Below are positions 12,891-62,126 of a DNA stretch of 64,000 nt, piece after piece. Position numbers and translations under genes: made by a program. Position 1 is the first letter of the stretch. Each line of letters opens with the position of its first letter. Below the pieces are notes generated by a model, which searched no databases, was not told where the DNA came from, and saw nothing but the letters and a program-made list of their open reading frames with translations. This DNA is from Candidatus Nanoarchaeia archaeon (GTDB lineage: Archaea > Nanobdellota > Nanobdellia > Woesearchaeales > GW2011-AR4): positions 10,065 to 74,064 of the forward strand of contig DATDZA010000018.1 in the NCBI GenBank assembly GCA_035288865.1. The letters run 5' to 3'.

Positions 12891-12896
12891 CTTTTC

Positions 12897-14960: not shown

Positions 14961-15027
14961 AAAGTTTGAGTAGGATGAAGTAGGATAATGGTAAGATATT
15001 TAAATAACTTGCGCTTCTAGAGGTACT

Positions 15028-17060
<2,033 letters not shown>

Positions 17061-21974: not shown

Positions 21975-21980
21975 CTAATT

Positions 21981-28672: not shown

Positions 28673-29539
28673 CTATTTCTTTCCTTTTCCCATCATCGCA
28701 ACATAATAATGGTAGATTGTATTGCCTTTGTAATGCACTATAAAAGAAATGATCTGAATTAAGACAGAAACGCTTCCGTATATCATTAAGTACCAATAAA
28801 GCATCGAGTATTTAGGCAATGCATTCCAGTAATAATTGTTTAATGTTTCCAATAAAACTAAGATGTTAATGTGGATTATGTTAAAAGGGGCGCCCCAGAA
28901 TTCCTTAATAAAATCATAAGTATGATATAATTTTGCTCCTGTTTCTGTTGAGCCGCCTTCAACATTTGGGCTCTTTCCGACTATTGAAGAGTATTTTTTT
29001 AATTTTTCGTCACTTCTGTTATTTTTTCTGTCTCTTATTGCATTCTTGACTACTGCAGACTTTATGGCTGACAGAACAGTTGACCTTGAAAATACTCCGC
29101 ACAGAAATCCGAAAATTACTGCTGACTTGTAGCCAGTTGCTAGAAATATCCCAAAACCCAAACTGAAAAAAATTAATGGGACTGACAATTCATGATAATA
29201 TTGCTCCAGAAAAGTTCCCATCATGCTTCCTTCTTTCCTGTACCGTGCGACTTCACCGTTAACGTTGTCTAAAATAACTGTGAAATGAATTATTAAAATT
29301 CCTATTAACATTAATTTTAATGTTCCAAATGTCATGAAAGCTGAACCCAGGATAGCCAATAAAATCATGCCAATCGTAATCATGTCCGCACTTATTGGGG
29401 TGTATAAAAGCAATTTAGTGACGTAAATAGAAATTTTCATGGTCACCCATTCCATGTACAATGGTCTTCTGCTTTTTGAATCCTTGTAGCAGATTTCCCT
29501 TAGTTCTTTTATGGATTCTACCATTGTAATTAAAGTCAA
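28673..29539 (-). CDS. CDP-alcohol phosphotransferase-family membrane protein (variant motif)
   Basis: LDNVNGEVARYRKEGSMMGTFLEQYYHE approximates DG(x)2AR(x)8G(x)3D(x)3D, with terminal E/H substitutions. Multi-TM. Confidence 0.45.
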   Translation of the reverse strand: MTLITMVESIKELREICYKDSKSRRPLYMEWVTMKISIYVTKLLLYTPISADMITIGMILLAILGSAFMTFGTLKLMLIGILIIHFTVILDNVNGEVARYRKEGSMMGTFLEQYYHELSVPLIFFSLGFGIFLATGYKSAVIFGFLCGVFSRSTVLSAIKSAVVKNAIRDRKNNRSDEKLKKYSSIVGKSPNVEGGSTETGAKLYHTYDFIKEFWGAPFNIIHINILVLLETLNNYYWNALPKYSMLYWYLMIYGSVSVLIQIISFIVHYKGNTIYHYYVAMMGKGKK

Positions 29540-29550
29540 GAATAGGATAT

Positions 29551-30426: not shown

Positions 30427-30429
30427 GGA

Positions 30430-32510: not shown

Positions 32511-32511
32511 T

Positions 32512-33597: not shown

Positions 33598-33598
33598 T

Positions 33599-45251: not shown

Positions 45252-46100
45252 TTATTTCTTAAAATTATAAAGAGCATCGGTAATGTATCTATGGCGCTCC
45301 ATATTGTAATAAAAAGCCAAAATCCATATTAATTTTGCAATAAATAATACTAACAAATATGGCACAATAAACCCCACCACTGAGATTGGATAGTCCATTT
45401 TGTTTCTAAAAATATACTCCGTTAATGTTAAGATGATTAGTATAGGGCAGGAGAAATATGCTGAATAAAATAGGCCGTTGAATGGGTAAATCCCGAATAG
45501 CTTATGGATTATGCTTGTCTTAGACCACACGATCTTTTTTTGAGTATTCCATAATAATCTGCCCATCACTGGCCTGTAATTTTTTAGTGGCATACCCATT
45601 TCCATCATGCCGGTTTTTATTGATGACCTCATTGCGTAAGTTATAGAATGTTCTAAAGTTATAATCAGGGTGATGGCCAATCCCAGGTATAAATATAATC
45701 CATTGCTGTAAATTTTTGAGAGGCCAACACCAATTCCAGTACCAAAGCATATAGACCAAACGTAATGGCTCATCTCATCGAAGAAGATACCCTCAAAACT
45801 TTTTTGATTAAGTATTCTTGCGATGTCCCCGTCTGAGCTGTCTAGAGTATAAAATAAAAAAAATAATGCAATCCCGACTGCGAAATAAATATATGTGCCT
45901 AAGGATAAGAATATGTAGCCCAAAACTCCCAAGAGATACGTGAATAGGGTTAGCTTGTTTGGTGTAGCGCCTAATTTTATCAGAATATATGTAAACGGAA
46001 GAGAAATTTTAACATATATTGTGTTCCCCTTTTTCTTTGATTTTATATCCGCTTCCTGCCTCGCTGCTAAATCTTTAAATGAAATATTCTTGCTCGTCAT
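45252..46100 (-). CDS. CDP-alcohol phosphotransferase-family membrane protein (variant motif), paralog of 28673..29539
   Basis: DSSDGDIARILNQKSFEGIFFDEMSH approximates D(x)2DG(x)2AR(x)8G(x)3D(x)3[D>H]. Multi-TM. Confidence 0.5.
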   Translation of the reverse strand: MTSKNISFKDLAARQEADIKSKKKGNTIYVKISLPFTYILIKLGATPNKLTLFTYLLGVLGYIFLSLGTYIYFAVGIALFFLFYTLDSSDGDIARILNQKSFEGIFFDEMSHYVWSICFGTGIGVGLSKIYSNGLYLYLGLAITLIITLEHSITYAMRSSIKTGMMEMGMPLKNYRPVMGRLLWNTQKKIVWSKTSIIHKLFGIYPFNGLFYSAYFSCPILIILTLTEYIFRNKMDYPISVVGFIVPYLLVLFIAKLIWILAFYYNMERHRYITDALYNFKK

Positions 46101-48151: not shown

Positions 48152-48958
48152 TCATAAAGGTATCTCTTTAATCCTTGTCTTGCTTGATTTTATCCCCACA
48201 CCAACCCAATTCTCGCCAAATAATCTCTCCAGCTTTAATATATCTATAAGTTTTGCTATCGGCTTTGGAAATAGTGTCATGCCAAATGCTTTGCTTTTGT
48301 AATCAAAGAAAACCCCCATCCTATACTTTGTTGCTTTAATCTTGTAAGGAAACAATTTTTCAAATTGCCTTTTTGAATAGACTTTTAGCAACGGAGCTCC
48401 CCATTCTTCCGTATTTTTATCTTTTTTTGATTCTGACATGAATCTAAAATAAAATTTCCTAAAAATGTAATGCTTCCATCCTTTTGCATACAGATGAATT
48501 AAAATCTTGCCATTAGGTCTTAGAACTCTATATGCCTCCCTTATTGCTTTTTCCGTATCTGGAGTATGATGCAGCACGCCAAGAGAATAAACAAAATCAA
48601 AAGTATTATCCTCAAAAGGCAGGTTTTCTGCATCGGCTTGAATGAAAGTGCCTTTTAAATTATAAATATCAAATCGCCTTTTTGTTATTTTTATTGCAGT
48701 TTCTGTTAAATCTATTCCAGTTACTATTGCTCCGTTCTTGGCAAACTGAAGTATATCAGTTCCACCTCCGCAGCCTATCTCTAAGACTTTCTTTCCTTTC
48801 CACTTATCCCATTTCAGAATTTCTGGAAAATACTTGTAATAAATTTCATATCTTTTTTGCTCCTGTTCATCAAAATAAGGTTTTGTATTAATCTTTTTGC
48901 TTGAATAAGCATCCTGCGGAAGATGGTTCTCCCACCAGTTCTTTATTTTTGTTTTCAT
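48152..48958 (-). CDS. class I SAM-dependent methyltransferase
   Basis: VLEIGCGGGTDILQFAK motif I and DFVYSLGVLHH. Its 5' end lies inside the tandem duplication. Confidence 0.7.
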   Translation of the reverse strand: MKTKIKNWWENHLPQDAYSSKKINTKPYFDEQEQKRYEIYYKYFPEILKWDKWKGKKVLEIGCGGGTDILQFAKNGAIVTGIDLTETAIKITKRRFDIYNLKGTFIQADAENLPFEDNTFDFVYSLGVLHHTPDTEKAIREAYRVLRPNGKILIHLYAKGWKHYIFRKFYFRFMSESKKDKNTEEWGAPLLKVYSKRQFEKLFPYKIKATKYRMGVFFDYKSKAFGMTLFPKPIAKLIDILKLERLFGENWVGVGIKSSKTRIKEIPL

Positions 48959-49088
48959 CTTCTGTCATCTTAAACTGTTATTTATCTTTTTCAAACAATG
49001 AATTTTATTCTCCCACCAGTTCTTTATTTTTGTTTTCATCTTCTGTCATCTTAAACTGTTACTTGTCTTTTTCAAACAATGAATTAAT
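48927..49088. repeat. perfect-register tandem duplication of an 81-bp unit (2 copies, 3 mismatches)
   Basis: TTCTCCCACCAGTTCTTTATTTTTGTTTTCATCTTCTGTCATCTTAAACTGTTA... occurs at 48927 and again at 49008. It spans the stop of the GAPDH-family gene and the start of the methyltransferase gene. Confidence 0.85.
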
Positions 49089-50105
49089 CAAGTCAATAAC
49101 CCTGCAGCTGTAACCCCACTCGTTGTCGTACCATAAAATTAATTTTAAATAATTGCCACTGTTTATTGTTGTCCATCTTTGGTCTATAATTGCAGAGTAC
49201 TCGCTTCCCTTGAAATCAATAGAGACAAGGGGGTCATAATTGTTATAGAATATATTGAATTTTTGCTTTTTCGCCGCATTTTCAAACAACGATCTAATTT
49301 CATCGACAGTAGTTTTTTTCCCTAGTTTTACTGATATATCGGATGAAGACACAGTAGCAGTGGGCACCCTGTATGAAAACGAATCAAACTTTCCCTTGAG
49401 GAATTTCAGCACTTTGCAGGCTGCCTCGACTGTCGTAGTGGGCTTTGGCAGCAGTGAAAACGTGCTTGCGCGCCCGAAAATATAATTGGAGTATATGTGG
49501 CCCGGATATGAAAAGGAAGGGCTCGGGCCGTCAAGAAGATTTTGGTACTGGAGCCAGGGATGCAGCGTCGTGATAAAACCGTGCTCTACCCCAAATTCCT
49601 GGTTCAGTACATTCATAACCGGCCCGAAGGCATTCGCATCACAAATGCTGTTTGAAATCACAAAATCTTTCTTGACATCAATATCATCTTCGTTTATGCC
49701 CACGATTACTGACTTGTCAACCAGTTTTTCTTCCGGGGAATGAGTCAATATAACCTGCCTGACCTTATTTTTTAAGTTTCTCGCCTTAACAACGTTTTCG
49801 TGAACACCGGAAGCATCAATTACCCTTGTTATGCCGTGCAAATCCCAGGGAACTTCATCAATATTATTTTCGTGATAGATTAAAATTTTCTTTCCATTTA
49901 CAACCATACCGGTCTGATTGGACTTGATATCCTGCTTTAGTATGCCGTACAAGGAATCATATTTTAATTGATAAGCAATATTGTTGTTGTCCGGATTTAT
50001 GTCGTTAATTACTACAACATCAAAATCCCTGCTCTCCAGAACTTTCCTGAACACAGCCCTGCCGATGCGCCCGAATCCGTTGATGCCAACAAGTTTATTA
50101 ACCAT
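49059..50105 (-). CDS. type-I (bacterial-type) GAPDH-family dehydrogenase with divergent active-site region
   Basis: VGINGFGRIGR (NAD motif) and ITTLHPW (cf. TTVHA). The catalytic-Cys region reads SNSICDAN instead of SNASCTTN. Confidence 0.65.
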   Translation of the reverse strand: MVNKLVGINGFGRIGRAVFRKVLESRDFDVVVINDINPDNNNIAYQLKYDSLYGILKQDIKSNQTGMVVNGKKILIYHENNIDEVPWDLHGITRVIDASGVHENVVKARNLKNKVRQVILTHSPEEKLVDKSVIVGINEDDIDVKKDFVISNSICDANAFGPVMNVLNQEFGVEHGFITTLHPWLQYQNLLDGPSPSFSYPGHIYSNYIFGRASTFSLLPKPTTTVEAACKVLKFLKGKFDSFSYRVPTATVSSSDISVKLGKKTTVDEIRSLFENAAKKQKFNIFYNNYDPLVSIDFKGSEYSAIIDQRWTTINSGNYLKLILWYDNEWGYSCRVIDLINSLFEKDK

Positions 50106-50150
50106 ACAATTTGGTATGCCCCGGGCATTTAAAAATATTCCTAAATTCCT

Positions 50151-50594
50151 TTAAACATATTTTTCTATAGATATAAATTCGAGATTATTTGAATCATTAT
50201 CTTTTGCATAAACCACAAGCCTTCCCCTGTTTGGCCCTTTGGGAATTATCTGCGGCCTGCCGGCAAGTTTCACTTTATTTTTTTTGAGCTTATTCATAAG
50301 ACTCATAAATCCATCAACATTAAAACAAATGTGTGCGCTGCCAATGTTGCAGGTTGCCGTGTCCAGCTTCTTGCCTTTCGGTGATAAATATTGGATAAGC
50401 TCTATCGAGCAATTGTTGCCGGATAGATAAGCAATTTTCAACTCAGCTTTTGGTATCCCGGTCACTTTTTCTGAGAACTTTGAATCTCGCATTGAAATAT
50501 CCATCAGCCTAAGCCCAAGAATATCTTTATAAAATTTTACAGAGTTGTCCAGGCTGCGCACAGTAAAACTCAAGTGATTCACGCTTGTAATCAT
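50151..50594 (-). CDS. VOC (glyoxalase/bleomycin-resistance/dioxygenase) family protein
   Basis: INHLSFTVRSLDNSVKFYKDILGL is the βαβββ VOC N-terminal module, repeated. 147 aa. Confidence 0.6.
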   Translation of the reverse strand: MITSVNHLSFTVRSLDNSVKFYKDILGLRLMDISMRDSKFSEKVTGIPKAELKIAYLSGNNCSIELIQYLSPKGKKLDTATCNIGSAHICFNVDGFMSLMNKLKKNKVKLAGRPQIIPKGPNRGRLVVYAKDNDSNNLEFISIEKYV

Positions 50595-50595
50595 C

Positions 50596-51732
50596 TTAAT
50601 AATCCAACTCCTCTTTTTTTATATAATTTGCGCAGTCTTCTATCAAATAATCATAAGTTTCGATGAACTCCCCCAAGAACGCTCTTACAAAATCCGGAGT
50701 GGTCCTATAGAAAGGAACGCCTTTTTTGGAATAAGGCCGTGCAATGCCGTTAATCAAAACAAGATTGATGCCCGTGCTCGAAGACTTTTTGTCCCTCATC
50801 ATGAAATTAACAAGATTATCCACATTAATATTCCGGTCAATATATATATTCAATCCCAATTCTTTCATCAGGCTTATTATGCGCTGAACAGATTTAGAAT
50901 CAATAATGCCGAGTTTTTTTGAAAAATGCAATGACATAACGGTTCCGGCGCTTATGGCATCTCCATGAAGTATTTCAAAATTTGAAATCTTTTCTATCGC
51001 ATGGCCAAAGGTGTGGCCAAGATTGCTCGCGAGAGGATTTATTTTTCTTATTTTTATTCTAGTCTCTGAAGCTAATTTTATTATATTCATAAGCAAATTG
51101 GGAGATGGTTTTTTTGAATATAGTCGCATCATGCCTATCAGCCTTGACGAGCCAAGAAGCCCGTATTTAAAAATTTCAGAATATCCCTGCCTTAAATGAT
51201 ATCTAGAATTTGTGCTGAGAAAATTGATGTTGTTGTATACTTTTAAGGGATAATAAAAAGTTCCAAGGAGATTTTTTGAATTTGAAGTATTAAGGCACGT
51301 CTTGCCTGCCGTTGAAGCATCAATCTGCCCAATAAGCGTTGTTGGGATGGCATAAAACGGCATGGCCCTCATGTAAGTGGAGCATGTGAAGCTTACAAGG
51401 TCTATTACTATACCGCCGCCAATGGCGATAACAAGGTCGGATAGATTGGACTTGTGCTTTTCAAGAAAATCCACAAGCTTAGGGTAGAAATTGATAGACT
51501 TGCTCTGCTCGCTAGCCTCAACCTCAAAGAAGAACATCGGCTTTTTGTGTGTGTTCAATCCCTTTCGTATTTTGCTGCCCCAAAGCCTACTTACTTCTTC
51601 GTCCATTATTACAAAAAATCTTTCAAAGCTGTGGCTGTCAAAATCGCCAATCCAGGTCATATTTGGGTCGTCATCAATTATAAAATCAATAGTATCCTTT
51701 TTTACATAAGTTGTTTTTATGTTCTTTATCAT
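50596..51732 (-). CDS. 3-dehydroquinate-synthase-family sugar-phosphate cyclase
   Basis: IAIGGGIVIDLVSF...AIPTTLIGQIDASTAGKTCLN and NLGHTFGHAIE...HGDAISAGTV align closely with AroB-type DHQS motifs (GGGV.GDL..F, PTTLL.QVDSS.GGKT, LNLGHTFGHAIE, HGEAV..GM). Confidence 0.75.
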   Translation of the reverse strand: MIKNIKTTYVKKDTIDFIIDDDPNMTWIGDFDSHSFERFFVIMDEEVSRLWGSKIRKGLNTHKKPMFFFEVEASEQSKSINFYPKLVDFLEKHKSNLSDLVIAIGGGIVIDLVSFTCSTYMRAMPFYAIPTTLIGQIDASTAGKTCLNTSNSKNLLGTFYYPLKVYNNINFLSTNSRYHLRQGYSEIFKYGLLGSSRLIGMMRLYSKKPSPNLLMNIIKLASETRIKIRKINPLASNLGHTFGHAIEKISNFEILHGDAISAGTVMSLHFSKKLGIIDSKSVQRIISLMKELGLNIYIDRNINVDNLVNFMMRDKKSSSTGINLVLINGIARPYSKKGVPFYRTTPDFVRAFLGEFIETYDYLIEDCANYIKKEELDY

Positions 51733-51733
51733 A

Positions 51734-52501
51734 TTAAAGTGCGTCCGTTTGATTCTGGACTAAATATTTTCCGCCGCTTATTTCAATATTTGCGCCCGTT
51801 AGATAAGATGCACCATCTGAGCACAGAAAAAGGACGGCCTGTGCAACTTCATCTGAGTTGCCATAGCGGCCAAGTGCAATCGCATCGGCAAGATTTTTCT
51901 TTTTTCTTATCAGGACTTTGTTCATGTCTGTCTCAATTACGCCGGGGCAATAGCTGTTGACTCTGATTCCATAGGGGGCAAGCTCAGCTGCCATGCTTTT
52001 TGTGATGCTTGCGACACCAGCCTTTGAAGCCGCATATACACAGCTTCCCACAGAAGGCATGACTGCGGCAAATGAAGATGCATTAATGATAACTCCATTT
52101 CGGTTTTTTTTCATGTGCTCGGCGGCAAACAGGGATAAAAAAAACAGTGATTTTAGGTTTGTTTCAAAAGTCCTATCCCAATGCTCTTCGGTTACTTGCA
52201 GCAGTTTTGATTGCAGGCACACTCCGGCATTGTTTACCCAAATGTCAATTCTTTTCCCATTTTTTGTGTAGCTTTCAATCCAATCTTTTACAGATTTAAG
52301 ATTTGTTATATCAAGCTGCACAAATTTATAATTATTACCTGCAGGCTTTTTTGTATTCTGAGGCGATCTTGAGATATTAATGACATTCGCCCCACTTTTG
52401 AGGAAGCTTTTAGCTATAGAAAACCCGATTCCTCTGGATGCACCTGTTATGACTACATTCTTTGCCCTGAAATCGAACTTTATGCCGCTCATATTATTCA
52501 T
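51734..52501 (-). CDS. short-chain dehydrogenase/reductase (SDR)
   Basis: VVITGASRGIGFSIA (TGxxxGIG), NNAG, and YAASKAG (YxxxK). Confidence 0.8.
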   Translation of the reverse strand: MNNMSGIKFDFRAKNVVITGASRGIGFSIAKSFLKSGANVINISRSPQNTKKPAGNNYKFVQLDITNLKSVKDWIESYTKNGKRIDIWVNNAGVCLQSKLLQVTEEHWDRTFETNLKSLFFLSLFAAEHMKKNRNGVIINASSFAAVMPSVGSCVYAASKAGVASITKSMAAELAPYGIRVNSYCPGVIETDMNKVLIRKKKNLADAIALGRYGNSDEVAQAVLFLCSDGASYLTGANIEISGGKYLVQNQTDAL

Positions 52502-52545
52502 AATTGCAAAAGTTATAGCTATTTAAATAAATTTCTTTTATTTTT

Positions 52546-53886
52546 TTATTTGCCTTGAAGGTAAACATTGATATCTCCCACATTTGTGTTAGTTGGCTTT
52601 GTTAAAATCAATGTATTAAGTATTTTATGGAGATCAAATGAATTGTTGTTTTTTATAAATGCCCCAATATCAAGCCTCAATTTCTGAGATTTTGAATAAG
52701 TGCTGTTGTCCGCAATTGCCCCCCCTACACCCGGCAGAAAATCAATGCCATCCGAATCTATGGAAGCAGCGACGCAATTACTCAAGTTTTTTATTTCATT
52801 AATTAAATATGCAATGTACTCCTGATTCCTCCCGCCTTTGCCCTTGCCTTTAACAGTGACGGTGTTCTCGCTACTGTAGATAAACGCAAACTTACCTTTC
52901 TGCAGCTTCTGCTTCCGTTTGAATATTTTTGACATTTTCGCCGCGACATTTTTAACTTCTCCTTCAGTATGCTCTGGGAGTATCTCAGTATCAAACCCAA
53001 GCTCAGCGGCTTTTTCTCCCATTGCTTCAAGGGCAGTTCTGTAGTCTGCAATAGTGTAATTATGGACATTTCCAAGAAATTTTTCATTTGGTTTCACAGT
53101 TTCTGGTATTTTGCCTTGCATGCCTTTTTTTATGTGACGTGTGACGCTTTGTGGCACTTTTTTCCATAATTTGTGTTTCTTTAATATCTCATAAGATTGC
53201 CTGAAGGTTGAATTATCAGGGCATGTAGGGCCTGACGCAGTCACATCATTTGGGTTTATCACATCAGATAAAATCAGCGAGATCACTCTTGCAGGCTGCA
53301 GGGTTCTTGCAAAATTTCCGCCTTTTAGCATTGATGTGTGCTTTCTGAGATTATTTAATTCGTAGCTTTTTGCCCCAGATTTTATCATCATTTCCGTCAT
53401 TCTCTTAAGATCTTTTAGCGTTATCCCTTCTGCAGGATCCGGAAGTAATGCAGAGCCGCCGCCGGAAATCAAGAATATTACTGTGTCACCCTTACGCGCT
53501 TTTTTTGCAATATCGAGCATCCGCTTTGTTCCATTTACACCCCTTTCATCGGGAACCGGATGAGATGCCATGTTAATTTTTATTTTTTCTGTTTTTATGC
53601 TGTTTGTGCTGCAGTTTACAATTCCAGCAGTTATGTGTTCTTTTGGAATAATCTTTTCCAAGGCACTTGCCATGGCTGCAGATGCTTTTCCGAAGCCTAT
53701 GACATAGATTTTTCCTTTTGATATATTAAGTTCGTCCCCGCAAATCTTGAGAATTCCATTGTTGAAGGCGACTTTTTTTGGCAATGCAGTCTGAGGCATT
53801 ACACTATTCACTCCAGCTAAAAGGATATCAAGTGCATCTCTCTTGAGGGGAGCTGAAGCAATTTGGCTATAATTTTTAATTATCAT
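52546..53886 (-). CDS. MOFRL-family glycerate kinase-like protein
   Basis: VIGFGKASAAMASALE and DTVIFLISGGGSALL (MOFRL/GckA-type motifs), 446 aa. Confidence 0.7.
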   Translation of the reverse strand: MIIKNYSQIASAPLKRDALDILLAGVNSVMPQTALPKKVAFNNGILKICGDELNISKGKIYVIGFGKASAAMASALEKIIPKEHITAGIVNCSTNSIKTEKIKINMASHPVPDERGVNGTKRMLDIAKKARKGDTVIFLISGGGSALLPDPAEGITLKDLKRMTEMMIKSGAKSYELNNLRKHTSMLKGGNFARTLQPARVISLILSDVINPNDVTASGPTCPDNSTFRQSYEILKKHKLWKKVPQSVTRHIKKGMQGKIPETVKPNEKFLGNVHNYTIADYRTALEAMGEKAAELGFDTEILPEHTEGEVKNVAAKMSKIFKRKQKLQKGKFAFIYSSENTVTVKGKGKGGRNQEYIAYLINEIKNLSNCVAASIDSDGIDFLPGVGGAIADNSTYSKSQKLRLDIGAFIKNNNSFDLHKILNTLILTKPTNTNVGDINVYLQGK

Positions 53887-54628
53887 TTTTTAAAATAAGT
53901 TTTAACCTCTTATTGGCCTTTCTTAGATCATTAGCATTATCAATTTCCTGCCATGCGTATTTTCCAGTTTTTATTATATAAAGATTAGAGTGCATGATAA
54001 ACTGGTGAATGGCCATTTCAATCTGTCCGAAACTCTTTCCCAGAGATATCTGATTTTTATTTTTGGAAATTACTTTTTTTATCTCCATGAAATACTTTCT
54101 TGCGCCTTTTGGAGAATACCTATATATCCCTATTGCCCTTGCATTACTATCTCTTAAGTTCCTTCCAATTCCGATAATTCTGTTGCGCGCTACTTTAACT
54201 TTCATAGCATTTTTTTCTAATTTGATTTTATTGTCTATAACTGCTATATCTGGGTAAGCGGCAGAAATAAGATTTTTTAATATGTTTATATTAAATAATA
54301 CGTCAGCATTGAGAAAAATAAACCCATCATCAATATCGTCTCTAGCTTCCCATAAAGAATACATATTGTCAGTTTTACCATAGTTCTTGTTTATGCGGTA
54401 TTTTATTCTGCAATTCTTGTATCTGGTTCCAATCATTTTTCTGAATTTTTTTGACTTATAACCGGCCACTATAATGACTTCATTTATGCCGCACGCGGAC
54501 AGATTATCCAAAGCATATTCAATAATCCTTTTTCGCCCGATTCTGATTAAGCATTTGGGAATATTATCTGTGTAAGGCCTCAGTCTTCTTCCCTGCCCGG
54601 CTGCGCATATTATAGCTTTCATTATCAA
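53876..54628 (-). CDS. LicC/MobA-like nucleotidyltransferase (sugar- or alcohol-phosphate cytidylyl/guanylyltransferase-like)
   Basis: AIICAAGQGRRLRPYTDNIPKCLI and NMYSLW. Overlaps the kinase gene by 11 nt. Confidence 0.65.
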   Translation of the reverse strand: MIMKAIICAAGQGRRLRPYTDNIPKCLIRIGRKRIIEYALDNLSACGINEVIIVAGYKSKKFRKMIGTRYKNCRIKYRINKNYGKTDNMYSLWEARDDIDDGFIFLNADVLFNINILKNLISAAYPDIAVIDNKIKLEKNAMKVKVARNRIIGIGRNLRDSNARAIGIYRYSPKGARKYFMEIKKVISKNKNQISLGKSFGQIEMAIHQFIMHSNLYIIKTGKYAWQEIDNANDLRKANKRLKLILKNDN

Positions 54629-54811: not shown

Positions 54812-56206
54812 TTGACAAGTTTGTCCAGAACAAGTGAAATGATGAATATTTTGCTGCTTATTATAGATGCTTTAAGACCCGATCATTTAGGTGCATGTGG
54901 TTATAGCCGGGAAACCAGCCCAAATATTGATAAGCTTGCAAATGAAGGAGTAGTATTCTTGAATGCTTATTGCACACTGCCAAGATCCGACCCTTCTATA
55001 ACTTCGATGCTTACCGGAAACTACCCATATTCCCATGGGGTAAGGATGATTACAAACAACAAAGTAGATCCTTCGATTTCCACTCTCCCCGAAATACTCA
55101 AGAGCCACGGTTACAGGACAGGATTCATAAAGCCGGGAACAATCCCTCCGGAAGGATACAGCAGGGGCTTTGATGATTATGATTTGGTTGGATGGAAAAT
55201 CAAGAATAAAATTAAGAGGGGAATATTCAAGATAAAAAATCCCGGAAATTTCTTGGGACCGGCAGCACAAAGATTTTCAACAGCCGTTAAGTGGATTAAT
55301 AAAAATGCACACAAAAAATTCTTTTTAGCTGTGCATACGCACGACTTGCACTGGCCATATCCCGTGCCCAAGCCATATGACCATATTTTTGACCCCGGCT
55401 ATAAAGGTGCACACACATTTGCTGATTTGGGCAAAGGGACAATCAGCAGGGGCGACCTCAGTTTTGGAGTCAAGAAACTCCCTAAAGAAGAAATTGACCA
55501 CGCGATTGCCCATTATGATGGCGGAATAAAGTATGTTGACGAATCGCTCAAAACAGTTTTCGATGCGCTGAAGGAAAAAAATATCTATGACGATACTTTA
55601 ATTATTATAGTTTCAGACCATGGCGAACACTTTGATGAGCATGGTTATTATTTTCAGCATGGCGCCAGCCTTTATGAACCCAGTGTAAAATCAACTTTTA
55701 TTATGAGATATCCAAAAAGGATTCCTCAGAAAAAAATAATTGAAAGCAGAGTTCAGTTGCTGGATATAACTCCAACAATTCTTGACATCCTCAATATACC
55801 TTTAATAGAAAAGAAAGAAGGCGTAAGCCTTATGCCACTTATAGACGGAAAAGTCAATGAAGCCCGTGATTTTGTATTCGTTGAGGGAATCGAAGAGTAT
55901 TTTAGCCAGCACAAGAGGATTTATCTGAAAGGCATAAAAGGAAAATGGCGAATGATTATTGTCGGTGACTGGAAACTTATATATATACCACATCCTGAAA
56001 AAAATATTTTTGAACTTTACAATCTGCGCCAAGACCCAAAGGAAGAAAGCAACCTGGTTGGCAAAGAGCAGGAAATATTTTTATCACTAAAGACGAAATT
56101 ATTTGATTTTTTGAGCTTGCAGAGCAATGAAGGCGAAGTCAACATTAAGGATTTGTCACAAAAGTCAAGGCAATTGCTGATTAAAGCTGGCTATCTGGAA
56201 AAATGA
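54812..56206 (+). CDS. sulfatase-family (alkaline-phosphatase superfamily) protein, cytoplasmic, non-canonical Cys motif
   Basis: NILLLIIDALRPDHLG N-terminus and SDHGEHFDEHGYYFQHG. A candidate formylglycine site CTLPRS sits where CxPxR is expected, with P shifted one residue. No signal peptide. Confidence 0.65.
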   Translation: MTSLSRTSEMMNILLLIIDALRPDHLGACGYSRETSPNIDKLANEGVVFLNAYCTLPRSDPSITSMLTGNYPYSHGVRMITNNKVDPSISTLPEILKSHGYRTGFIKPGTIPPEGYSRGFDDYDLVGWKIKNKIKRGIFKIKNPGNFLGPAAQRFSTAVKWINKNAHKKFFLAVHTHDLHWPYPVPKPYDHIFDPGYKGAHTFADLGKGTISRGDLSFGVKKLPKEEIDHAIAHYDGGIKYVDESLKTVFDALKEKNIYDDTLIIIVSDHGEHFDEHGYYFQHGASLYEPSVKSTFIMRYPKRIPQKKIIESRVQLLDITPTILDILNIPLIEKKEGVSLMPLIDGKVNEARDFVFVEGIEEYFSQHKRIYLKGIKGKWRMIIVGDWKLIYIPHPEKNIFELYNLRQDPKEESNLVGKEQEIFLSLKTKLFDFLSLQSNEGEVNIKDLSQKSRQLLIKAGYLEK

Positions 56207-56220
56207 TATTGTGAACGAGA

Positions 56221-57369
56221 ATGAAAATTCCATTTCTCTCCGGAAAAAGAAAACCCAACATCGTAATGATTCTGATAGATTGCGGCGGGCGAGAAGATGC
56301 CATCACGAAAGTGCCGTTCTACCAGAAGCTAAAAGAATCGTCTGTACTATTTTCAAGTTTTATAACTTACGCCCCTTATACCATCGGGGCCCTAAATGCA
56401 ATGTTTTCAGGAATGTACGGCAATTTGAATGGCGTTCAGGGATATTATAAGAGTTATAGCTTTGACAAGGACCACGTTTTTACATTGACGCAATACCTGA
56501 AAGACGAGGGATATTACACCGAGATGGATTTTCCGATTGAAGACGTACTTCCCCAACAGGGTTTTGATAAGGTGAGGCTTTTCGGCAAGGACGAAACTAA
56601 AGAGATAGACCTTTTACAGCGCCATTGCGAGGTCCTTAACCAAATAAAAGACAAACAGCCATTCTTCCTTTTCCTTGAATACAACAAACTGGGATTGACC
56701 CTTATGAGGGAAGTAATAAAGAAATATGATGATTACAATGAAGATTATTTCAGGAACAAGGAAAAAAACTTTTCCAGATATTTAAAAGAGCTCGAGGAAA
56801 GCGGTAATTACCTGGAAGGATACTTCACAAAGATGAAAGAGCTTGATTTGTTTGAAAATTCAATAATTGTAGTGTTTGCCGACCACGGAAGCAGTGTGGG
56901 TGATAAACCAGGGGAAAAAGTCTATGGTACATATCTGTATGATTACACCATAAAATGCTGGGCCTATGTGATTGGCAATGGCATACCTAAGAATCTGGAA
57001 ATTAGGCAAGTTGTGAGGAATATAGACTTGCTTCCAACTATTCTGGAATTATTAAAAATATCAGTAAAGAAAAAATATAAACCAATTCAGGGCAGGTCGC
57101 TGCTGCCATTGCTGACGGGAAAAAAAGAAGCTAGGATTGCTTATTCGGAAACAGGCGGCCTTGGAGGACCAACACCTTCGCCGGAAAAACACAATATCAG
57201 GGCGGTAAGAACTGACAAATGGAAATTGATCTATAATGAAACCAACAAGAAAAAAGAGTTATATGACTTGGAGAATGACAGAGAGGAAATAAATAACCTC
57301 ATAGGCAAGGGGCTGGATATAGAAAAATTACTGTGGGATGAGCTGCAGAGACAGGGCGAGCTTCTTTAA
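56221..57369 (+). CDS. sulfatase-like alkaline-phosphatase-superfamily protein lacking the C/S-x-P-x-R motif
   Basis: NIVMILIDCGGRED and VVFADHGSSVGD (DHG). No formylglycine motif and no signal peptide. Confidence 0.55.
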   Translation: MKIPFLSGKRKPNIVMILIDCGGREDAITKVPFYQKLKESSVLFSSFITYAPYTIGALNAMFSGMYGNLNGVQGYYKSYSFDKDHVFTLTQYLKDEGYYTEMDFPIEDVLPQQGFDKVRLFGKDETKEIDLLQRHCEVLNQIKDKQPFFLFLEYNKLGLTLMREVIKKYDDYNEDYFRNKEKNFSRYLKELEESGNYLEGYFTKMKELDLFENSIIVVFADHGSSVGDKPGEKVYGTYLYDYTIKCWAYVIGNGIPKNLEIRQVVRNIDLLPTILELLKISVKKKYKPIQGRSLLPLLTGKKEARIAYSETGGLGGPTPSPEKHNIRAVRTDKWKLIYNETNKKKELYDLENDREEINNLIGKGLDIEKLLWDELQRQGELL

Positions 57370-57769
57370 ATTTTAAAATAATGAAAAAGAATTAAGATTT
57401 TAATGCAGTAAAATGTTGGAAATTTTACACTAGTCAAAGGCTAGTAGCCGAAATATAATTGATTTGGTAATTGTATAAAATTTTCAAGCACATTTAAGAA
57501 TGACTTGTCTGTCTGGGGAATGTAAGCTAACGTTTTATTTTACCAGTCTGTAACTGCTGGTTCTGGTATTCTACAAGACAATATTTTGGGCGGTATACAA
57601 TAAATATCATAAAATAGTCATGACGCCAAATTAAATGCGCAAAACAATGGAATCAGGCATAGAAACATTTAAATAATTTGGTCAAGTATCTGGAGGAACC
57701 TATAAGTGGAATTATTAGACACGGGGGATAATTAATGATATACTCTTCGCAGTATAATTAAGATGACCA

Positions 57770-59188
57770 ATGAGCACACAAGAAAAGACTGGCAGTCAGA
57801 TGCCCAAGCCAAGTTCTGGGAAATATGCTAACCAGATTTATGGCGATTTCTGCATGGCTTCAGCGAAGCAATTAAACTTAGTTCCTATTGATATGGGATA
57901 TGGTGACCCTGCGTCAGATAAGTTTATACCCAAGGAATTGCTGAGACATTTTCTAGATCAGCTTCATAATAAGAATGCAGGAGCCTATCCGGATGTTAAA
58001 GGTGATATAAATCTTATCAATAAATTCAAGGAATTCATAAAAAATGATGAGGGACTGTCATATGATTACGACGTTGCAGTTGTCAGCGGCGGCGGCAGGT
58101 CTGCAATTACAAATATTTTAAGCATTTTCTTAAAGCCGAAAGACATCGTCCTTATACCTTATCCGGCATGGAGCGGCTATAAATCACTGGCAAGATTTGT
58201 GGATGCAATTATTTACCCAATTACTACAACAATGAATAAGCGGTTCATCCCTTCTGTAGCAGACATAGAATCGGCAATAGCCGAATCCAAAAAAAGCCAC
58301 CCCAACAGTAATGTTAAGCTGATGATTTTAAACACGCCACATAACCCTACAGGATCAGTTTACTCAAGCGATTCCATAAGGGAAATTCTGCAGATTCTGC
58401 ATAAGCATGGAATAGCCTGTCTTGCAGATTATACTTATAGGGCGATTAGGGACAAGGGCACGCCCATGCAGTCAGTCCATAAAATTGCTGAAGATATTGA
58501 GTTTGAGGAGCAGCTTCCAAAAGGCACATTTACTGATAACATAGTGGCTATGCAGACAGTCGGTAAAGTATCGCTTACGCCTGGGTTCAGGATAGGATAT
58601 GTAGCAACTACCAACTCAAAGGTCATCGAGGCGTTTTGCACCAAAAAACAAGCAATAGACTTCTCGGGAATTTTATTCATACAAAAAGCATTTTCAGAAT
58701 ACCTGCTTACGCAAAGCCAGGCAAATGAATTTGAGCAAACAATCAACTTATTTGATAAAAGAAGAAGCACATTTATAGACCAGATAAGTAAATATGGATA
58801 CGCTCCAGATAAACATAACATAATTATAAACAAATCTGGATTTTACATCTCTTTTGAGATACCACGCCAATATCACAAAAAATACCCCCTGGAGCAGTTT
58901 CATCAACTGGTGCAGAAATACCCTTTTATTGAAAAGTGCATTAACCTTGACGAATACAAGGGATGGTTTGCGGAAAGAGGATACATACCGGCTTCTGAAA
59001 TATTTGTCTTGGATATTATTAGTAAAACGGCTATTAATCTGCTTCCCGGATACCTTTTCTGTTCCGTGAACAAGCAATTTCCGAATGAGTATGAAAATTG
59101 GGTTAGGGTTGCATTAATACAAGATGAAAGTTCAATTAATGAGGCGTTTAAAAGAATAGAAAATCATAAGGATTTGCTTAAGTGGTGA
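57770..59188 (+). CDS. class I pyridoxal-phosphate aminotransferase with ~90-aa N-terminal extension
   Basis: VGKVSLTPGFRIGYV is the fold-type I PLP-lysine region (cf. SVSKTYAMTGWRIGY in the other aminotransferase). 472 aa. Confidence 0.7.
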   Translation: MSTQEKTGSQMPKPSSGKYANQIYGDFCMASAKQLNLVPIDMGYGDPASDKFIPKELLRHFLDQLHNKNAGAYPDVKGDINLINKFKEFIKNDEGLSYDYDVAVVSGGGRSAITNILSIFLKPKDIVLIPYPAWSGYKSLARFVDAIIYPITTTMNKRFIPSVADIESAIAESKKSHPNSNVKLMILNTPHNPTGSVYSSDSIREILQILHKHGIACLADYTYRAIRDKGTPMQSVHKIAEDIEFEEQLPKGTFTDNIVAMQTVGKVSLTPGFRIGYVATTNSKVIEAFCTKKQAIDFSGILFIQKAFSEYLLTQSQANEFEQTINLFDKRRSTFIDQISKYGYAPDKHNIIINKSGFYISFEIPRQYHKKYPLEQFHQLVQKYPFIEKCINLDEYKGWFAERGYIPASEIFVLDIISKTAINLLPGYLFCSVNKQFPNEYENWVRVALIQDESSINEAFKRIENHKDLLKW

Positions 59189-59901
59189 ATATTATGGCAA
59201 AAGCAGTAATAATGGCGGCGGGCATGGGCAGGAGATTGGAAGGCGCTATCGGTGATATACCAAAAAGTTTGATTAATCTTGGTGGAGAGGCGCTTATAAC
59301 TAAACAGATTAACATGCTTAAGGAATGTGGCATAAAAAAAATTGCAGTTGTAGTTGGCTATAGAAAAGAAAAGATTAAAGAGTTATTGGGGAATAATGTG
59401 ACTTATTATTTTAATCCATTTTTTGAAACGACAAATAGTGTTACATCCTTGTGGTTCGCCAAGGAATTCTTTTCTGATGAGGATGTTATAGTAATGAACG
59501 GCGATATGCTCGTTGAATCTTCTGTTGTTAAGGATTTATTAATTGATAAGAACCCCGTATGCGTAACTGTAGAAGTGGGAAAATACAATGAGATTGGCTA
59601 CAAGGCGAGAATAAAAAATAATTTTGTTGATTTTATGGGAATGAATATACATAAAAGTGAAGTTGCAGGAGAATACGTCGGCGTATCTAAAGTATCACGT
59701 AACATATTTCCAATTTTTATCAAAACTCTGGAAAATTTCATGGAAAAAAAAGAATTTGGAACATGGTACGAGACGGCGTATGTGCAGATGATCGGTGAAG
59801 GAGTCAGAATATCTTTTGTTGACACTAACCAAAGGTCCTGGCTTGAAATTGACACGCCTGATGATATTGAAAAGGCAATCCAGTATTTTAATTTGCAATA
59901 A
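59182..59901 (+). CDS. LicC/MobA-like nucleotidyltransferase (paralog of 53876..54628)
   Basis: AVIMAAGMGRRLEGAIGDIPKSLI and NSVTSLWFA. Overlaps the aminotransferase by 7 nt. Confidence 0.65.
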   Translation: MVNIMAKAVIMAAGMGRRLEGAIGDIPKSLINLGGEALITKQINMLKECGIKKIAVVVGYRKEKIKELLGNNVTYYFNPFFETTNSVTSLWFAKEFFSDEDVIVMNGDMLVESSVVKDLLIDKNPVCVTVEVGKYNEIGYKARIKNNFVDFMGMNIHKSEVAGEYVGVSKVSRNIFPIFIKTLENFMEKKEFGTWYETAYVQMIGEGVRISFVDTNQRSWLEIDTPDDIEKAIQYFNLQ

Positions 59902-59906
59902 AAGGA

Positions 59907-60626
59907 ATGACAATCGGAAAAGTCGCTTTAATAACTGGTTCTAGCAGGGGAATAGGGCTTGAGATAGCAAAAACATTATACAGAAATAACTATTCAGTCA
60001 GCTTGATTAGCAGAAACAAGGATGAACTACAGCGCTCATTTGGCAAAAGCAAGAATGCACTATTCATAAAATGTGATGTCTCGTCTGTGGATGACATTAA
60101 ATCTGCAGTAGCGCAAACAATAAAGAGGTTTGGCAGGATTGACATTCTCGTAAATAACGCAGGCGTTAACTTAAGAACTGATTTCATGCATACTACTAAA
60201 GAAGAATGGAACGAAGTGATTAATACAAACCTTACGAGCGTGTTCTTCATTTCCCAGTTTGTTGGGAACATCATGCTCAAGCAGAAAGGAGGCTCCATCA
60301 TAAATATATCATCTGTACTCGGTATAAAGGCAGATTCTGTTTCTGTTCAATACGGGGTGTCTAAAGGGGCAATAATTACATTAACAAAATATCTGGCAAA
60401 AACGTTTGCGCCCAACATCAGCGTGAACTGTATAGCTCCGGGCTTTGTAAACACCGGCTGGCATTCTGATAAATCTCCTGAACGTATCCAGAGTATAATA
60501 GAAAGGATACCGATGAAGCGCTTTGCCGAGCCCAAAGAAGTTGCACAATTGGCGTTCTTTTTGGCATCACAGGGAAGGTATATAACAGGCGAAACAATAA
60601 TTATGGATGGAGGGTATAGCTTGTGA
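59907..60626 (+). CDS. short-chain dehydrogenase/reductase (SDR, FabG-like)
   Basis: ALITGSSRGIGLEIA, NNAG, YGVSKGA (YxxxK). Confidence 0.8.
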   Translation: MTIGKVALITGSSRGIGLEIAKTLYRNNYSVSLISRNKDELQRSFGKSKNALFIKCDVSSVDDIKSAVAQTIKRFGRIDILVNNAGVNLRTDFMHTTKEEWNEVINTNLTSVFFISQFVGNIMLKQKGGSIINISSVLGIKADSVSVQYGVSKGAIITLTKYLAKTFAPNISVNCIAPGFVNTGWHSDKSPERIQSIIERIPMKRFAEPKEVAQLAFFLASQGRYITGETIIMDGGYSL

Positions 60627-60635
60627 CTTACAGGC

Positions 60636-62126
60636 TTAATGAATAACTCTTTTGTACAGCATTTTTAATTCTTCTATCGTTACTGCCCTGAACAGAAAGA
60701 GCAGAATTACATAAGATGATGATGCTATGGCAAGCACTATAAAAGTCTCAAGCCACACATTCAAAACGAGCCCTCTTTTTAATACCCATATAATAGAGGT
60801 AAAAATGATTCCGGCGCTAAATGTTTTTACCCATAAACCCACTGGAAACTCTATATTAATAAATTTCTTTATATAAAATAATCCGACAGCCATCATTATG
60901 AAATAGCTTATGGTTGTAGTTATTGCAGCGCCTATAATTCCAAATATGGGGATCAAAATTATATTACCAACAAAATTAAAAGCTGCGGCAGCATAAACCA
61001 CTATTGCAGTAATTCTCGGCTTCCCTATCCCGGCAAAAAAACTTATGTTTATTCCGTATAAGACTGCAAAAATCATCCCTATGCTCAGCACTTTCATTGA
61101 ATTGCTGGCCATTATATAACCCTTCCCATAAAGAACCGTTATAAGGAGGTCGCTGAACGAAAACATGATAAAAACTGCCGGAATTATAAGAATGATTGAA
61201 TATTTGTACAGTGATTCTATTCCAATCTTCAGCAGATCATTTTTCTTTTTTACCCACAATTCAGATGTCAATGGCAATAAAACGCCGCTGATCGCTCTAG
61301 GAAAGTACAGTAAGACTTTTGTTGTAGGCAATGCCACGCTGTACAGGCCGACACTTTTCAGGTCGGAGAAATAAGTCAGTGCCACGATATCAGTATAATA
61401 AAGAATCATTCCAGCTGCACTTGTTTCTGTGACAAAAATGCTGTATTTTGATATTTTTTTTATCAAGCCCATGTCAAAAGAGAATTTGGACGTTGAAAAA
61501 TCTGGAAAAACATTTTTCAAAAGTATCCAGCCGAATACAAGCAGCAGAATAAATGGTGTTATAGTATATGCTATCACTGGTCCCAGCAGGCCATAATTCA
61601 TTTTTATCCCAATAAATATTATGATTAAAATGAGAATCATCCTGACGATATCTATCACTGAAAAATAAATCATTTTTTTAAATCCCTGGAATGCAAATTT
61701 GACAACCATAACAAAGCTGTCAACAAAAAAAGCAATTGCAAGAAGCTTAAGGACAATGCCTGCCTTTGGGCTTTGGAAAAAATTCATGCTCAAATAACTG
61801 GAAAATAAATACACGCCTAAAATTATTATTATGTTTATCACCAGCATTATGATGCATACATAAAAAATGGAGCTTTTTATGAAATCTTTTTTATTTTCGT
61901 GCAGAAATTCTGGAATAAATTTTATAAGCGCCTTGTCAAAACCCAGGCTTTTGAATACCCCCAGCAATCCTAAAAAAGAAAAAACTGAATTGAACAATCC
62001 AAAGTCCTCAACGCTAAGATTTCTTGCCATCACAAGCCGTACAAGGTAGCCAAGAAATGCCGCAAACAAGGATATGACTAATACTGTAATAGTCCCCCTG
62101 ACTGCGAATTTTGTGTAATTTGTCAT
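60636..62126 (-). CDS. Wzx-like flippase (MOP superfamily polysaccharide biosynthesis protein)
   Basis: About 14 TM helices and family-typical topology. Second flippase in the island. Confidence 0.7.
   Translation of the reverse strand: MTNYTKFAVRGTITVLVISLFAAFLGYLVRLVMARNLSVEDFGLFNSVFSFLGLLGVFKSLGFDKALIKFIPEFLHENKKDFIKSSIFYVCIIMLVINIIIILGVYLFSSYLSMNFFQSPKAGIVLKLLAIAFFVDSFVMVVKFAFQGFKKMIYFSVIDIVRMILILIIIFIGIKMNYGLLGPVIAYTITPFILLLVFGWILLKNVFPDFSTSKFSFDMGLIKKISKYSIFVTETSAAGMILYYTDIVALTYFSDLKSVGLYSVALPTTKVLLYFPRAISGVLLPLTSELWVKKKNDLLKIGIESLYKYSIILIIPAVFIMFSFSDLLITVLYGKGYIMASNSMKVLSIGMIFAVLYGINISFFAGIGKPRITAIVVYAAAAFNFVGNIILIPIFGIIGAAITTTISYFIMMAVGLFYIKKFINIEFPVGLWVKTFSAGIIFTSIIWVLKRGLVLNVWLETFIVLAIASSSYVILLFLFRAVTIEELKMLYKRVIH

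Follow-up and report, generated by a model that had tools for sequence, protein, structure and literature searches.

A 64-kb stretch of a Candidatus Nanoarchaeia genome (contig DATDZA010000018.1, positions 10,065 to 74,064; hereafter the window, meaning the whole of the DNA analysed) carries three adjacent genes encoding an aminotransferase-like enzyme dependent on pyridoxal phosphate (PLP), referred to as AT, a nucleotidyltransferase (NTase), NT2, and a short-chain dehydrogenase/reductase (SDR), SDR2. We read this cassette as a so far uncharacterised form of head-group activation of the LicC/Kennedy type, organised around a new, very rare family of enzymes resembling aspartate aminotransferases (AspATs). 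On balance, we favour the view that it is a self-contained accessory module, moved horizontally between archaea and bacteria, which makes an envelope head-group donor consisting of an amine-bearing phospho-alcohol (or phospho-amino acid) activated with cytidine diphosphate (CDP). The three same-strand open reading frames (ORFs) and their families, as described in an earlier note on this DNA, were borne out by ORF calls and Pfam, and the idea of a co-functioning mini-operon was supported.

The aminotransferase and a cytidylyltransferase are linked in distant genomes

We compared the AT locus of the window with those of eleven other non-identical lineages, in which the window proteins were searched by tblastn. 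A cytidylyltransferase gene lay directly downstream of AT in all 11 of the other lineages with downstream sequence, although only as remnants in locus L009. Identity of AT to the window copy ranged from 35 to 67%, and contig GC content from 25 to 59%; the recurrence of the order AT-cytidylyltransferase-(SDR) over such ranges indicates that the linkage is more than chance. The invariant core consists of AT and the cytidylyltransferase, with either an SDR or a class V aminotransferase as the third gene. Members of the AT family were found in metagenome-assembled genomes (MAGs) labelled Nanoarchaeota, Verrucomicrobiales and 'Ca. Anammoxibacter', and this patchiness across phyla, together with the spread in GC content (25-59%), points to horizontal transfer.

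The window arrangement, in which AT is followed by a LicC-like NTase and an SDR (variant A), was also observed in L025 (AT 67% identical), in L014 and L022 (Verrucomicrobiales, 55%) and probably in L024 (50%). In these loci, the NT2 orthologues located directly after AT were 46-68% identical to NT2, and those of L007, L016, L017, L020 and L021 were about 32% identical. L016 contains at least AT and the NTase before its contig ends. In L009 (AT 60%), the NTase and the SDR were reduced to fragments, followed by a gene for a CDP-alcohol phosphotransferase (CDP-OH_P_transf). The window order Sulf1-AT-NT2-SDR2 was kept in L009/L013 (positions 149-2580; JAIQZO010000072, MAG labelled Ca. Anammoxibacter, contig GC 36%), with Sulf1, NT2 and SDR2 present only as pieces of 51-95 amino acids (55-67% identity). 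This locus appears to be a decayed cassette, and its contig is possibly a misbinned DPANN-like contig.

A second arrangement (variant A') was found in L011 (Nanoarchaeota, AT 43%) and L026 (35%), where a cytidylyltransferase of the TagD/GCT fold, unrelated to the LicC fold, occupies the place of the LicC-like gene (TIGR01518, 93 and 108 bits, respectively). This exchange of one fold for the other is the strongest single argument that what the loci have kept in common is the activation of a small phospho-alcohol with a cytidylyl group; if this reading holds, it also represents a clean case of non-orthologous displacement that pins down a pathway step. In L011, the TagD-like gene is followed by an SDR, a cytidylate kinase and a CDP-OH_P_transf gene. 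Two CDP-OH_P_transf genes occur in L026, which also has an SDR with 53% identity to SDR2 and, next to the cassette, a gene resembling glycerol-1-phosphate dehydrogenase (141 bits). In both loci, a protein of 249-269 amino acids is encoded directly upstream of AT (L011, 4932-5741; L026, 4470-5219; 35% mutual identity). The window lacks this protein, for which no Pfam or NCBIfam match was found; it may act as a further component of the pathway.

In the third arrangement (variant B; L007, L017, L020 and L021), AT and the LicC-like NTase are followed by a class V aminotransferase of the BhcA/PhnW-AepZ-like type, which matched PhnW/AepZ-type models at 140-150 bits, far below the cut-off of 360, and gave weak SerC-like matches (E = 1e-8 to 1e-15). 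L007, L020 and L021 also carry LicD and lie next to nonulosonic-acid genes. Moreover, two of these loci (L007, 5172-7115; L020, 10501-12555) encode, near NeuB and the AT cassette, a protein in which CTP_transf_3 (CMP-nonulosonate synthetase type) is fused to a class III aminotransferase.

AT founds a small family close to aspartate aminotransferases

AT belongs to PF00155 (Aminotran_1_2; E = 2.8e-36, over the gathering score), and its only other Pfam matches at E <= 0.01 were PF01212 and PF01053. Neither PF01041 (DegT/DnrJ/EryC1) nor PF00202 (class III) was matched at this threshold. The best profile matches were to LL-DAP aminotransferase and AspAT (E = 1e-35 to 1e-33). Among the 25 NCBIfam models listed, every curated cut-off was missed, the best score being 122.6 bits versus 507 (NF006756). 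Since its scores are a quarter or less of each cut-off, AT falls into no named specificity group (LL-DAP aminotransferase, AspAT, GntC, tyrosine aminotransferase and others). Of the types for which profile comparison had been proposed, the aminocyclitol enzymes (ValM, GabT-type; BtrS and, likewise DegT-type, StsC) were not supported, as neither PF00202 nor PF01041 was matched, and the scores for the LL-DAP aminotransferase type were far below cut-off.

Residues K266, D220, Y223, N192, R274 and R446 are invariant in the AT family and align with those of canonical AspATs. We take these to be the Schiff-base lysine (Lys266, codon 58565-58567), the ligands of the pyridine nitrogen (Asp220), of O3' (Tyr223 and Asn192) and of the PLP phosphate (Arg274), and the alpha-carboxylate-binding arginine (Arg446). 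AT also keeps Tyr73 and a conserved Arg110. The latter sits where the Igamma subgroup of AspATs has the lysine (Lys109) binding the distal carboxylate, and, with the catalytic residues, it is consistent with glutamate or aspartate as the amino donor. AT is presumed to be the aminotransferase that installs the amine.

The AlphaFold2 model of AT had a pLDDT of 86.8, with residues 1-16 as the sole low-confidence tail. The best Foldseek matches were AspAT 8wou, prephenate aminotransferase 6f5v and BacF 6l1n (target-normalised TM-score 0.8-0.88, about 20% identity). An N-terminal extension of about 90 residues, as had been described, was not recovered: alignment to canonical AspATs begins at residue 36-40 of AT and residue 32-38 of the target, and the roughly 80 extra residues are internal, forming five insertions (about 18-29, 172-179, 244-254, 370-408 and 433-441).

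The family comprises about 18 clusters at 90% identity clustering (43-95% identity), the next match having an E-value of 3e-12. In an exhaustive HMMER pass over 1.84 billion representatives, six AT clusters were found at E <= 1e-30, after which the score fell from 466 to 112 bits. By these searches, AT founds a very small, isolated family, of which only some twenty sequences are known and none is characterised. That AT is instead a housekeeping aspartate, aromatic or LL-DAP aminotransferase, incidentally adjacent to NT2 and SDR2, is the reading to which its best profile matches would lead, but it is extremely improbable. Indeed, its scores fall well short of the curated cut-offs, the window has a separate canonical AspAT (Table 1) only 26% identical to AT, and the family is very rare and patchy across phyla, with a conserved linkage to a cytidylyltransferase.

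NT2 is related to LicC, PntC and IPCT

NT2 matched PF12804 (NTP_transf_3; E = 8.7e-13, 49.2 bits, cut-off 27) and PF00483 (NTP_transferase; E = 9.8e-9, 35.6 bits, cut-off 21.2), and it contains the nucleotide-binding signature A8AGMGRRL...PK24 (G-x-G-x-R...K). Its best solved relatives were LicC (1jyk, 2.2e-12), PntC-AEPT (6pd1, 1.4e-10) and the IPCT of T. maritima (4jd0, 4.5e-8). The alignments with 6pd1 and 4jd0 covered the full length, and the IPCT model NF041135 gave 64.5 bits, far below its equivalog cut-off. Beyond six close homologues, the relatives of NT2 were annotated as members of the phosphocholine cytidylyltransferase family or as L-glutamine-phosphate cytidylyltransferases. The proposed paralogy with the other LicC-like NTase of the window, NT1 (53876-54628), was confirmed over the full length (29% identity, E = 1e-26), as was the SLW motif common to both, which is SLY in LicC.

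The substrates of LicC and PntC are amine-bearing phospho(no)-alcohols (PMC6697681). Of the two amine-contact positions compared with these enzymes, NT2 has an asparagine at one and retains a glutamate at the other, a pattern that did not single out a substrate. NT2 is presumed, from its relatedness to LicC and PntC, to be a CTP:phospho-amino-alcohol cytidylyltransferase. We infer cytidine triphosphate (CTP) as its nucleotide from its cytidylyltransferase relatives and from the TagD-like replacement in L011 and L026.

SDR2 is a classical reductase with an NADP-type signature

The earlier identification of a second SDR was upheld. SDR2 has the classical motifs T10GSSRGIG (TGxxxGxG), N83NAG, S135/S136 and Y149xxxK153, and it is 35% identical to SDR1 (51734-52501). 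It matched PF13561 (adh_short_C2; E = 5.7e-60) and PF00106 (adh_short), both at about 1e-55 to 1e-60, and exceeded the cut-off of NF005559 (228.6 bits versus 215); the best matches in the PDB were CylG 9cly and FabG 2uvd (about 2.6e-47). Orthologues were 64% (L025), 53% (L026) and 36% (L014) identical, and the NADP-type pattern (TGSSRGIG and S35-R36) was common to those of all three loci. This signature gave no decisive reaction direction. SDR2 would provide the redox step of the cassette and has the least certain role of the three genes.

The pairing of AT with an NADPH-type SDR also brought to mind an alpha-oxoamine synthase acting with a ketoreductase, as in sphingoid-like synthesis. This candidate was rejected, because the AspAT-type residues are kept in AT and no alpha-oxoamine synthase model was among the 25 best NCBIfam matches listed.

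The cassette is independent of the neighbouring cyclase block

Near the cassette lies a block of genes encoding the LicC/IPCT-like NT1, a MOFRL/DUF4147 kinase, SDR1, a DHQS-like cyclase, a VOC protein, a GAPDH-like protein and a divergent AsnB (Table 1). It is conserved in DPANN/CPR genomes, with counterparts at 6114-14548 in L028 and 6450-14528 in L031. The DHQS-like protein scored below the AroB cut-off. The block looks like a CDP-cyclitol-type pathway, and it may surpass the triad in both spread and interest.

The earlier note had assigned to AT the transamination of a keto intermediate for this operon, as in aminocyclitol/C7N pathways. In such a scheme, AT would aminate a keto-cyclitol made by the NT1-kinase-SDR-DHQS-like-VOC-GAPDH-like operon, and NT2 would activate the resulting aminocyclitol phosphate. 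Sugar-phosphate-cyclase pathways often include transamination, no aminotransferase is encoded in the cyclase block itself, the two modules are only about 3 kb apart in the window, and NT1 and NT2 are both LicC/IPCT-like. The distribution of the genes, however, makes this scheme very improbable. No DHQS-like, VOC, MOFRL or GAPDH-like homologue was detected by tblastn within 10 kb of AT in any of the eleven other lineages (0/11). Conversely, the triad is missing from L028-L030 (70% identity) and from L031/L032 (61%), all of which have the block NT1-MOFRL-SDR1-DHQS-VOC-GAPDH with the divergent AsnB. Abundance also differs, with 645 homologues of the DHQS-like protein at E <= 1e-20, including DHQS::VOC fusions, versus about 18 for AT. 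The families usual for such an aminotransferase, PF01041 and PF00202, are those not matched by AT.

A clean comparison was provided by L028, a sister genome obtained from the sample that also yielded the window. The two are collinear (identities of 66% for the flippase Wzx, 64% for Sulf2, 75% for MOFRL, 87% for GAPDH and 85% for AsnB), and in L028 Wzx and Sulf2 abut (4726/4727), whereas in the window they are separated by 3.3 kb (57370-60635) consisting of the spacer and the triad. In the segments compared (L028, 3236-6010; window, 56221-62126), Sulf1 and a methyltransferase were also rearranged. The exact absence of the triad from L028 identifies it as a presence/absence cassette which the cyclase block does not need. 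Elsewhere, the triad is thus separate from the cyclase genes, as the earlier note had envisaged for the case that its proposal failed; the link to amino-acid metabolism envisaged with it was not observed, the triad being linked instead to CDP-alcohol and glycan genes. These results correct a tempting but unsupported 'aminocyclitol' annotation of an archaeal cluster.

Further along L028 (14604-19855), two more LicC-like NTases are encoded beside an ABC importer with a binding protein of the Phosphonate-bd/NMT1 type, followed by a CDP-OH_P_transf gene. In this genome without the triad, the region may serve to salvage a head group of the phospho(no)-alcohol type.

CDP-alcohol-using enzymes accompany the cassette in six lineages

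Genes for enzymes that use CDP-alcohols were found beside the cassette in six lineages, namely CDP-OH_P_transf in L009, L011 and L026, and LicD in L007, L020 and L021. The window itself encodes two CDP-alcohol phosphotransferases (Table 1). The copy at 28673 matched the cassette-adjacent CDP-OH_P_transf proteins of L011 and L026 at 73-77 bits, and the copy at 45252 at 46-68 bits. The former is, from this similarity, a tentative consumer of the cassette product. The latter has a 32%-identical counterpart in the cyclase island of L028, and in L031 such a gene lies directly upstream of the NT1 orthologue; it more likely works with the cyclase block than with the triad. The suggestion that the two NTases serve two separately activated donors agrees with these data, each NTase being in a conserved module of its own and two phosphotransferases being present in the window.

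No kinase that would make a phospho-alcohol (LicA/choline kinase type) was detected in or beside any of the cassettes examined, which implies that the substrate should already be phosphorylated.

Proposed pathway and its alternatives

In the first step, the AspAT-like enzyme, using glutamate or aspartate, would aminate a phosphorylated carbonyl metabolite. Our best single guess is the conversion of dihydroxyacetone phosphate (DHAP) to serinol phosphate, as by Cj1437, which makes (S)-serinol phosphate from DHAP (PMC11800397); amination of a sugar phosphate is also known, fructose-6-phosphate being aminated at C2 in azasugar biosynthesis (PMC8382821). In the second step, the LicC-like enzyme would join the amine product (X) to CTP, yielding CDP-X. 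Phospho-X would then be transferred, with release of cytidine monophosphate (CMP), to an acceptor that could be a glycan, a lipid or a second polyol phosphate; archaeal-type loci would use a CDP-alcohol phosphotransferase for this, and bacterial loci a LicD-type enzyme. The SDR would perform a pathway-specific redox reaction, with the precursor, CDP-X or the acceptor as its substrate. For the sequence of these steps, and for X, its acceptor and what the SDR does, the scheme gives what seems to us most plausible. The glycerol-1-phosphate-dehydrogenase-like neighbour in L026 is compatible with C3 chemistry (DHAP or glycerol phosphate). Serinol phosphate leading to CDP-serinol, the most specific form of our guess, is put forward with low confidence.

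Several observations weigh against this pathway. If DHAP is the substrate, the SDR is left without an assigned step; it would fit CDP-serinol only if oxidation and amination acted on glycerol phosphate or CDP-glycerol, or if the SDR prepared the acceptor. Where PntC has its amine-contacting Glu104 and LicC the reported counterpart Asp105 ('IDAD'), NT2 has an asparagine ('VMNGD'). The chemistry does not seem to be uniform, since a class V aminotransferase replaces the SDR in four bacterial lineages. The CDP-alcohol transferases of the window are not adjacent to the cassette, the nearest being at 12 and 29 kb, and no recognisable transferase was detected within 10 kb in L014 (Verrucomicrobiales). 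No description of CDP-serinol, CDP-serine, phosphoserinol or related donors was found in the papers searched. Finally, the reaction of the PLP enzyme could be a decarboxylation instead of a transamination.

In this last case, an enzyme of the CobD/Cj1436/FrbH kind would convert phosphoserine (or phosphothreonine, or an amino acid linked to CMP or CDP) to ethanolamine phosphate or aminopropanol phosphate, and the donor would resemble CDP-ethanolamine. The fold-type I family PF00155 includes such enzymes, ECT and CCT activate 2-aminoethyl phosphates, and phosphoserine could be supplied by the SerC-like class V enzyme of the bacterial variant. Moreover, Cj1436 makes ethanolamine phosphate from L-serine phosphate (PMC11800397), FrbH, which is associated with a LicC-like domain, acts on an amino-phosphonate (mentioned in PMC6697681), and enzymes activating 2-aminoethyl phosph(on)ates are known from each of the two cytidylyltransferase folds that accompany AT, PntC being one of them (PMC6697681). 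We nevertheless consider a decarboxylase quite improbable: the nearest profiles and structures are all those of true transaminases (LL-DAP aminotransferase, AspAT, prephenate aminotransferase and BacF), no CobD-type model was among the 25 best NCBIfam matches listed, and Arg110 and Arg446 fit the binding of a dicarboxylate amino donor. The role of the SDR would be left unexplained there too.

Phosphonate tailoring of the Pnt kind, in which AT would make an aminophosphonate such as phosphonoalanine or 2-aminoethylphosphonate (AEP) and NT2 its CMP conjugate, is suggested by the resemblance of NT2 to PntC and by the bacterial variant, whose NTase, PhnW/AepZ-like class V aminotransferase and LicD mirror the PntC-AEPT fusion of T. 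denticola (PMC6697681). It is highly improbable, because no PEP mutase or phosphonopyruvate decarboxylase family was found among the called genes of the loci examined or the approximately 40 window ORFs scanned, and because the PhnW-like matches remain far below the 360-bit cut-off. A link to the aminopentanetetrol lipid head group of Methanomicrobiales was also considered and dropped as unsupported; the literature search found no pathway for it, and this order has no member of the AT family.

A cassette making a CDP-activated amine-bearing donor would be a new route to phospho-amine surface decoration, a functional analogue of tailoring with phosphocholine, phosphoethanolamine or AEP, and it would give a function to a recurrent accessory module in the glycan islands of DPANN archaea, about whose envelope chemistry very little is known. 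It is possible, though we put it forward with low confidence, that the donor is an undescribed one (e.g., CDP-serinol or another CDP-amino-polyol), that an AspAT-type enzyme was recruited to aminate a phosphorylated carbonyl compound other than an amino acid, and that DPANN archaea and a few bacteria attach the phospho-amine through CDP-alcohol phosphotransferases or LicD. If so, archaeal surface glycans or scavenged lipids would bear a zwitterionic decoration of a new kind, and the cassette, taken with the CDP-cyclitol-like neighbouring block, would point to a family of modules with which ultra-small archaea tailor their surfaces by way of a 'CDP-alcohol'.

Layout of the cassette and its surroundings

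The stop and start codons of the three genes had been described as overlapping. Both junctions are in fact 5-nt spacers when NT2 starts at its ATG (AT stop TGA, 59186-59188; NT2 ATG, 59194; NT2 stop TAA, 59899-59901; SDR2 ATG, 59907), and AT and NT2 overlap only if the upstream GTG is used (Table 1). The ATG was chosen by gene callers on six independent contigs, and it places GxGxR at residues 10-14, as in the homologues. The 400 nt upstream of the cassette contained no supported ORF of at least 25 amino acids and no Rfam family, and are presumed to be its own promoter region.

Table 1. Positions of the cassette and of other features in the 64-kb window
Feature	Position	Strand	Description
Aminotransferase (AT)	57770..59188	+	472 aa; AspAT-subgroup-like fold-type I PLP enzyme
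Nucleotidyltransferase NT2	59194..59901	+	235 aa; LicC/PntC/IPCT-like
NT2, alternative GTG start	59182	+	239 aa if used
SDR2	59907..60626	+	239 aa; classical SDR, NADP(H)-type signature, FabG/glucose-1-dehydrogenase-like
Intergenic stretch	57370..57769	+	400 nt, AT-rich; upstream of cassette, after sulfatase-family genes
Sulfatase-family pair	54812-56206 and 56221-57369	+	Alkaline-phosphatase superfamily; no N-terminal membrane domain
Cyclase block	48152-54628	-	plus 46198-48072 (+)
Second CDP-alcohol phosphotransferase	45252..46100	-	282 aa; PF01066, E = 1e-7
CDP-alcohol phosphotransferase	28673..29539	-	288 aa; PF01066; archaetidylinositol-phosphate-synthase-like
Lone 5S rRNA gene	12749-12891	+	
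Archaeal-type RqcH-like protein	11285-12388	+	
Canonical archaeal-type AspAT	9136-10302	+	423 bits

The window has a GC content of about 36%, and the cassette lies within a 40-kb glycan island containing GT2/GT4 glycosyltransferases, epimerases and flippases. Homologues of the window genes were found in public MAGs labelled Pacearchaeota, Nanoarchaeia or Nanoarchaeota; with the GC content, the archaeal-type RqcH and AspAT and the lone 5S rRNA gene, this makes a DPANN archaeon the likely source. No tRNA gene was present anywhere in the 64 kb.

The two sulfatase-family proteins encoded ahead of the intergenic stretch showed no canonical C/S-x-P-x-R motif on reading of the sequence; a role as phosphatase, phosphodiesterase or sulfatase may be conceived. 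Their relatives recur next to the cassette in L009 and L026, and next to the cyclase block in L028. Genes of the sulfation type also recur in such islands: in the window, an APS kinase gene is flanked by genes for two PHP-domain proteins and a CDP-OH_P_transf (28673-31844, minus strand), and L026 has an APS-kinase::inositol-monophosphatase-family fusion and a PAPS_reduct protein (1141-2454 and 14595-15449). Among the other genes of the glycan island, several long ORFs (207-758 amino acids) had no match (4780-6186, 20538-23708, 24093-26369, 31887-34708 and 39991-42051), each having been searched against one library, Pfam at E <= 1e-4 for some and NCBIfam at E <= 1e-10 for the rest.

Comparison with known systems

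The window as a whole resembles the validamycin pathway (ValA, ValM and ValB) in having a cyclase-like gene, a VOC protein, a kinase, NTases, SDRs and an aminotransferase. It differs in that ValM is like GabT1, a class III enzyme, whereas AT is AspAT-like, and in that AT is not co-inherited with the cyclase in loci outside the window. ValM has been reported to be 50% similar to GabT1 (PMC8382821).

In the HS:2 capsule system of C. jejuni, PLP enzymes (Cj1437 and Cj1436) provide an amino-alcohol phosphate for a surface glycan, a likeness drawn from their reported activity (PMC11800397). Unlike the proposed product of the cassette, theirs is joined by an ATP-dependent amide ligase and undergoes no CTP activation. 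The CDP-alditol synthases TarI/TarJ and Bcs1 combine a ketose-phosphate reductase with a cytidylyltransferase, that of TarI being IspD-like. The cassette shares with them an NADPH-type reductase and a cytidylyltransferase in a surface-polymer locus, but the TarI/TarJ and Bcs1 systems contain no aminotransferase.

A closer likeness for NT2 is provided by IPCT/DIPPS and other Kennedy-type systems, since NT2 matches the IPCT domain over its whole length and the donor would likewise be a small, soluble CDP-alcohol. The transferases adjacent to the cassette also belong to PF01066 and resemble archaetidylinositol-phosphate synthase and DIPPS. The cassette, however, has no fusion, no MIPS gene and no thermophile context, it includes an aminotransferase, and its scores are far below the equivalog cut-offs.

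PntC-AEPT of Treponema denticola (Tde1415; 6pd1/6pd2) unites a LicC-like cytidylyltransferase with an aminotransferase and yields a CMP-activated 2-aminoethyl head group (PMC6697681). NT2 aligns with it at full length, and variant B adds a PhnW/AepZ-like class V aminotransferase. In contrast, the aminotransferase of the cassette is a class I enzyme of the AspAT type rather than class V, the genes are not fused, and no PEP mutase or decarboxylase was present in the loci examined.

Finally, the Lic pathway of Streptococcus and Haemophilus follows the same logic as that proposed here, in which an amine-bearing phospho-alcohol is converted to a CDP conjugate and transferred onto a glycan; NT2 is a homologue of LicC, and the bacterial variant of the cassette carries LicD. 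The cassette differs from it in having neither a LicA-type kinase nor a LicB transporter. Moreover, its amine is apparently made de novo by the PLP enzyme, and the archaeal-type loci use CDP-OH_P_transf enzymes rather than LicD.

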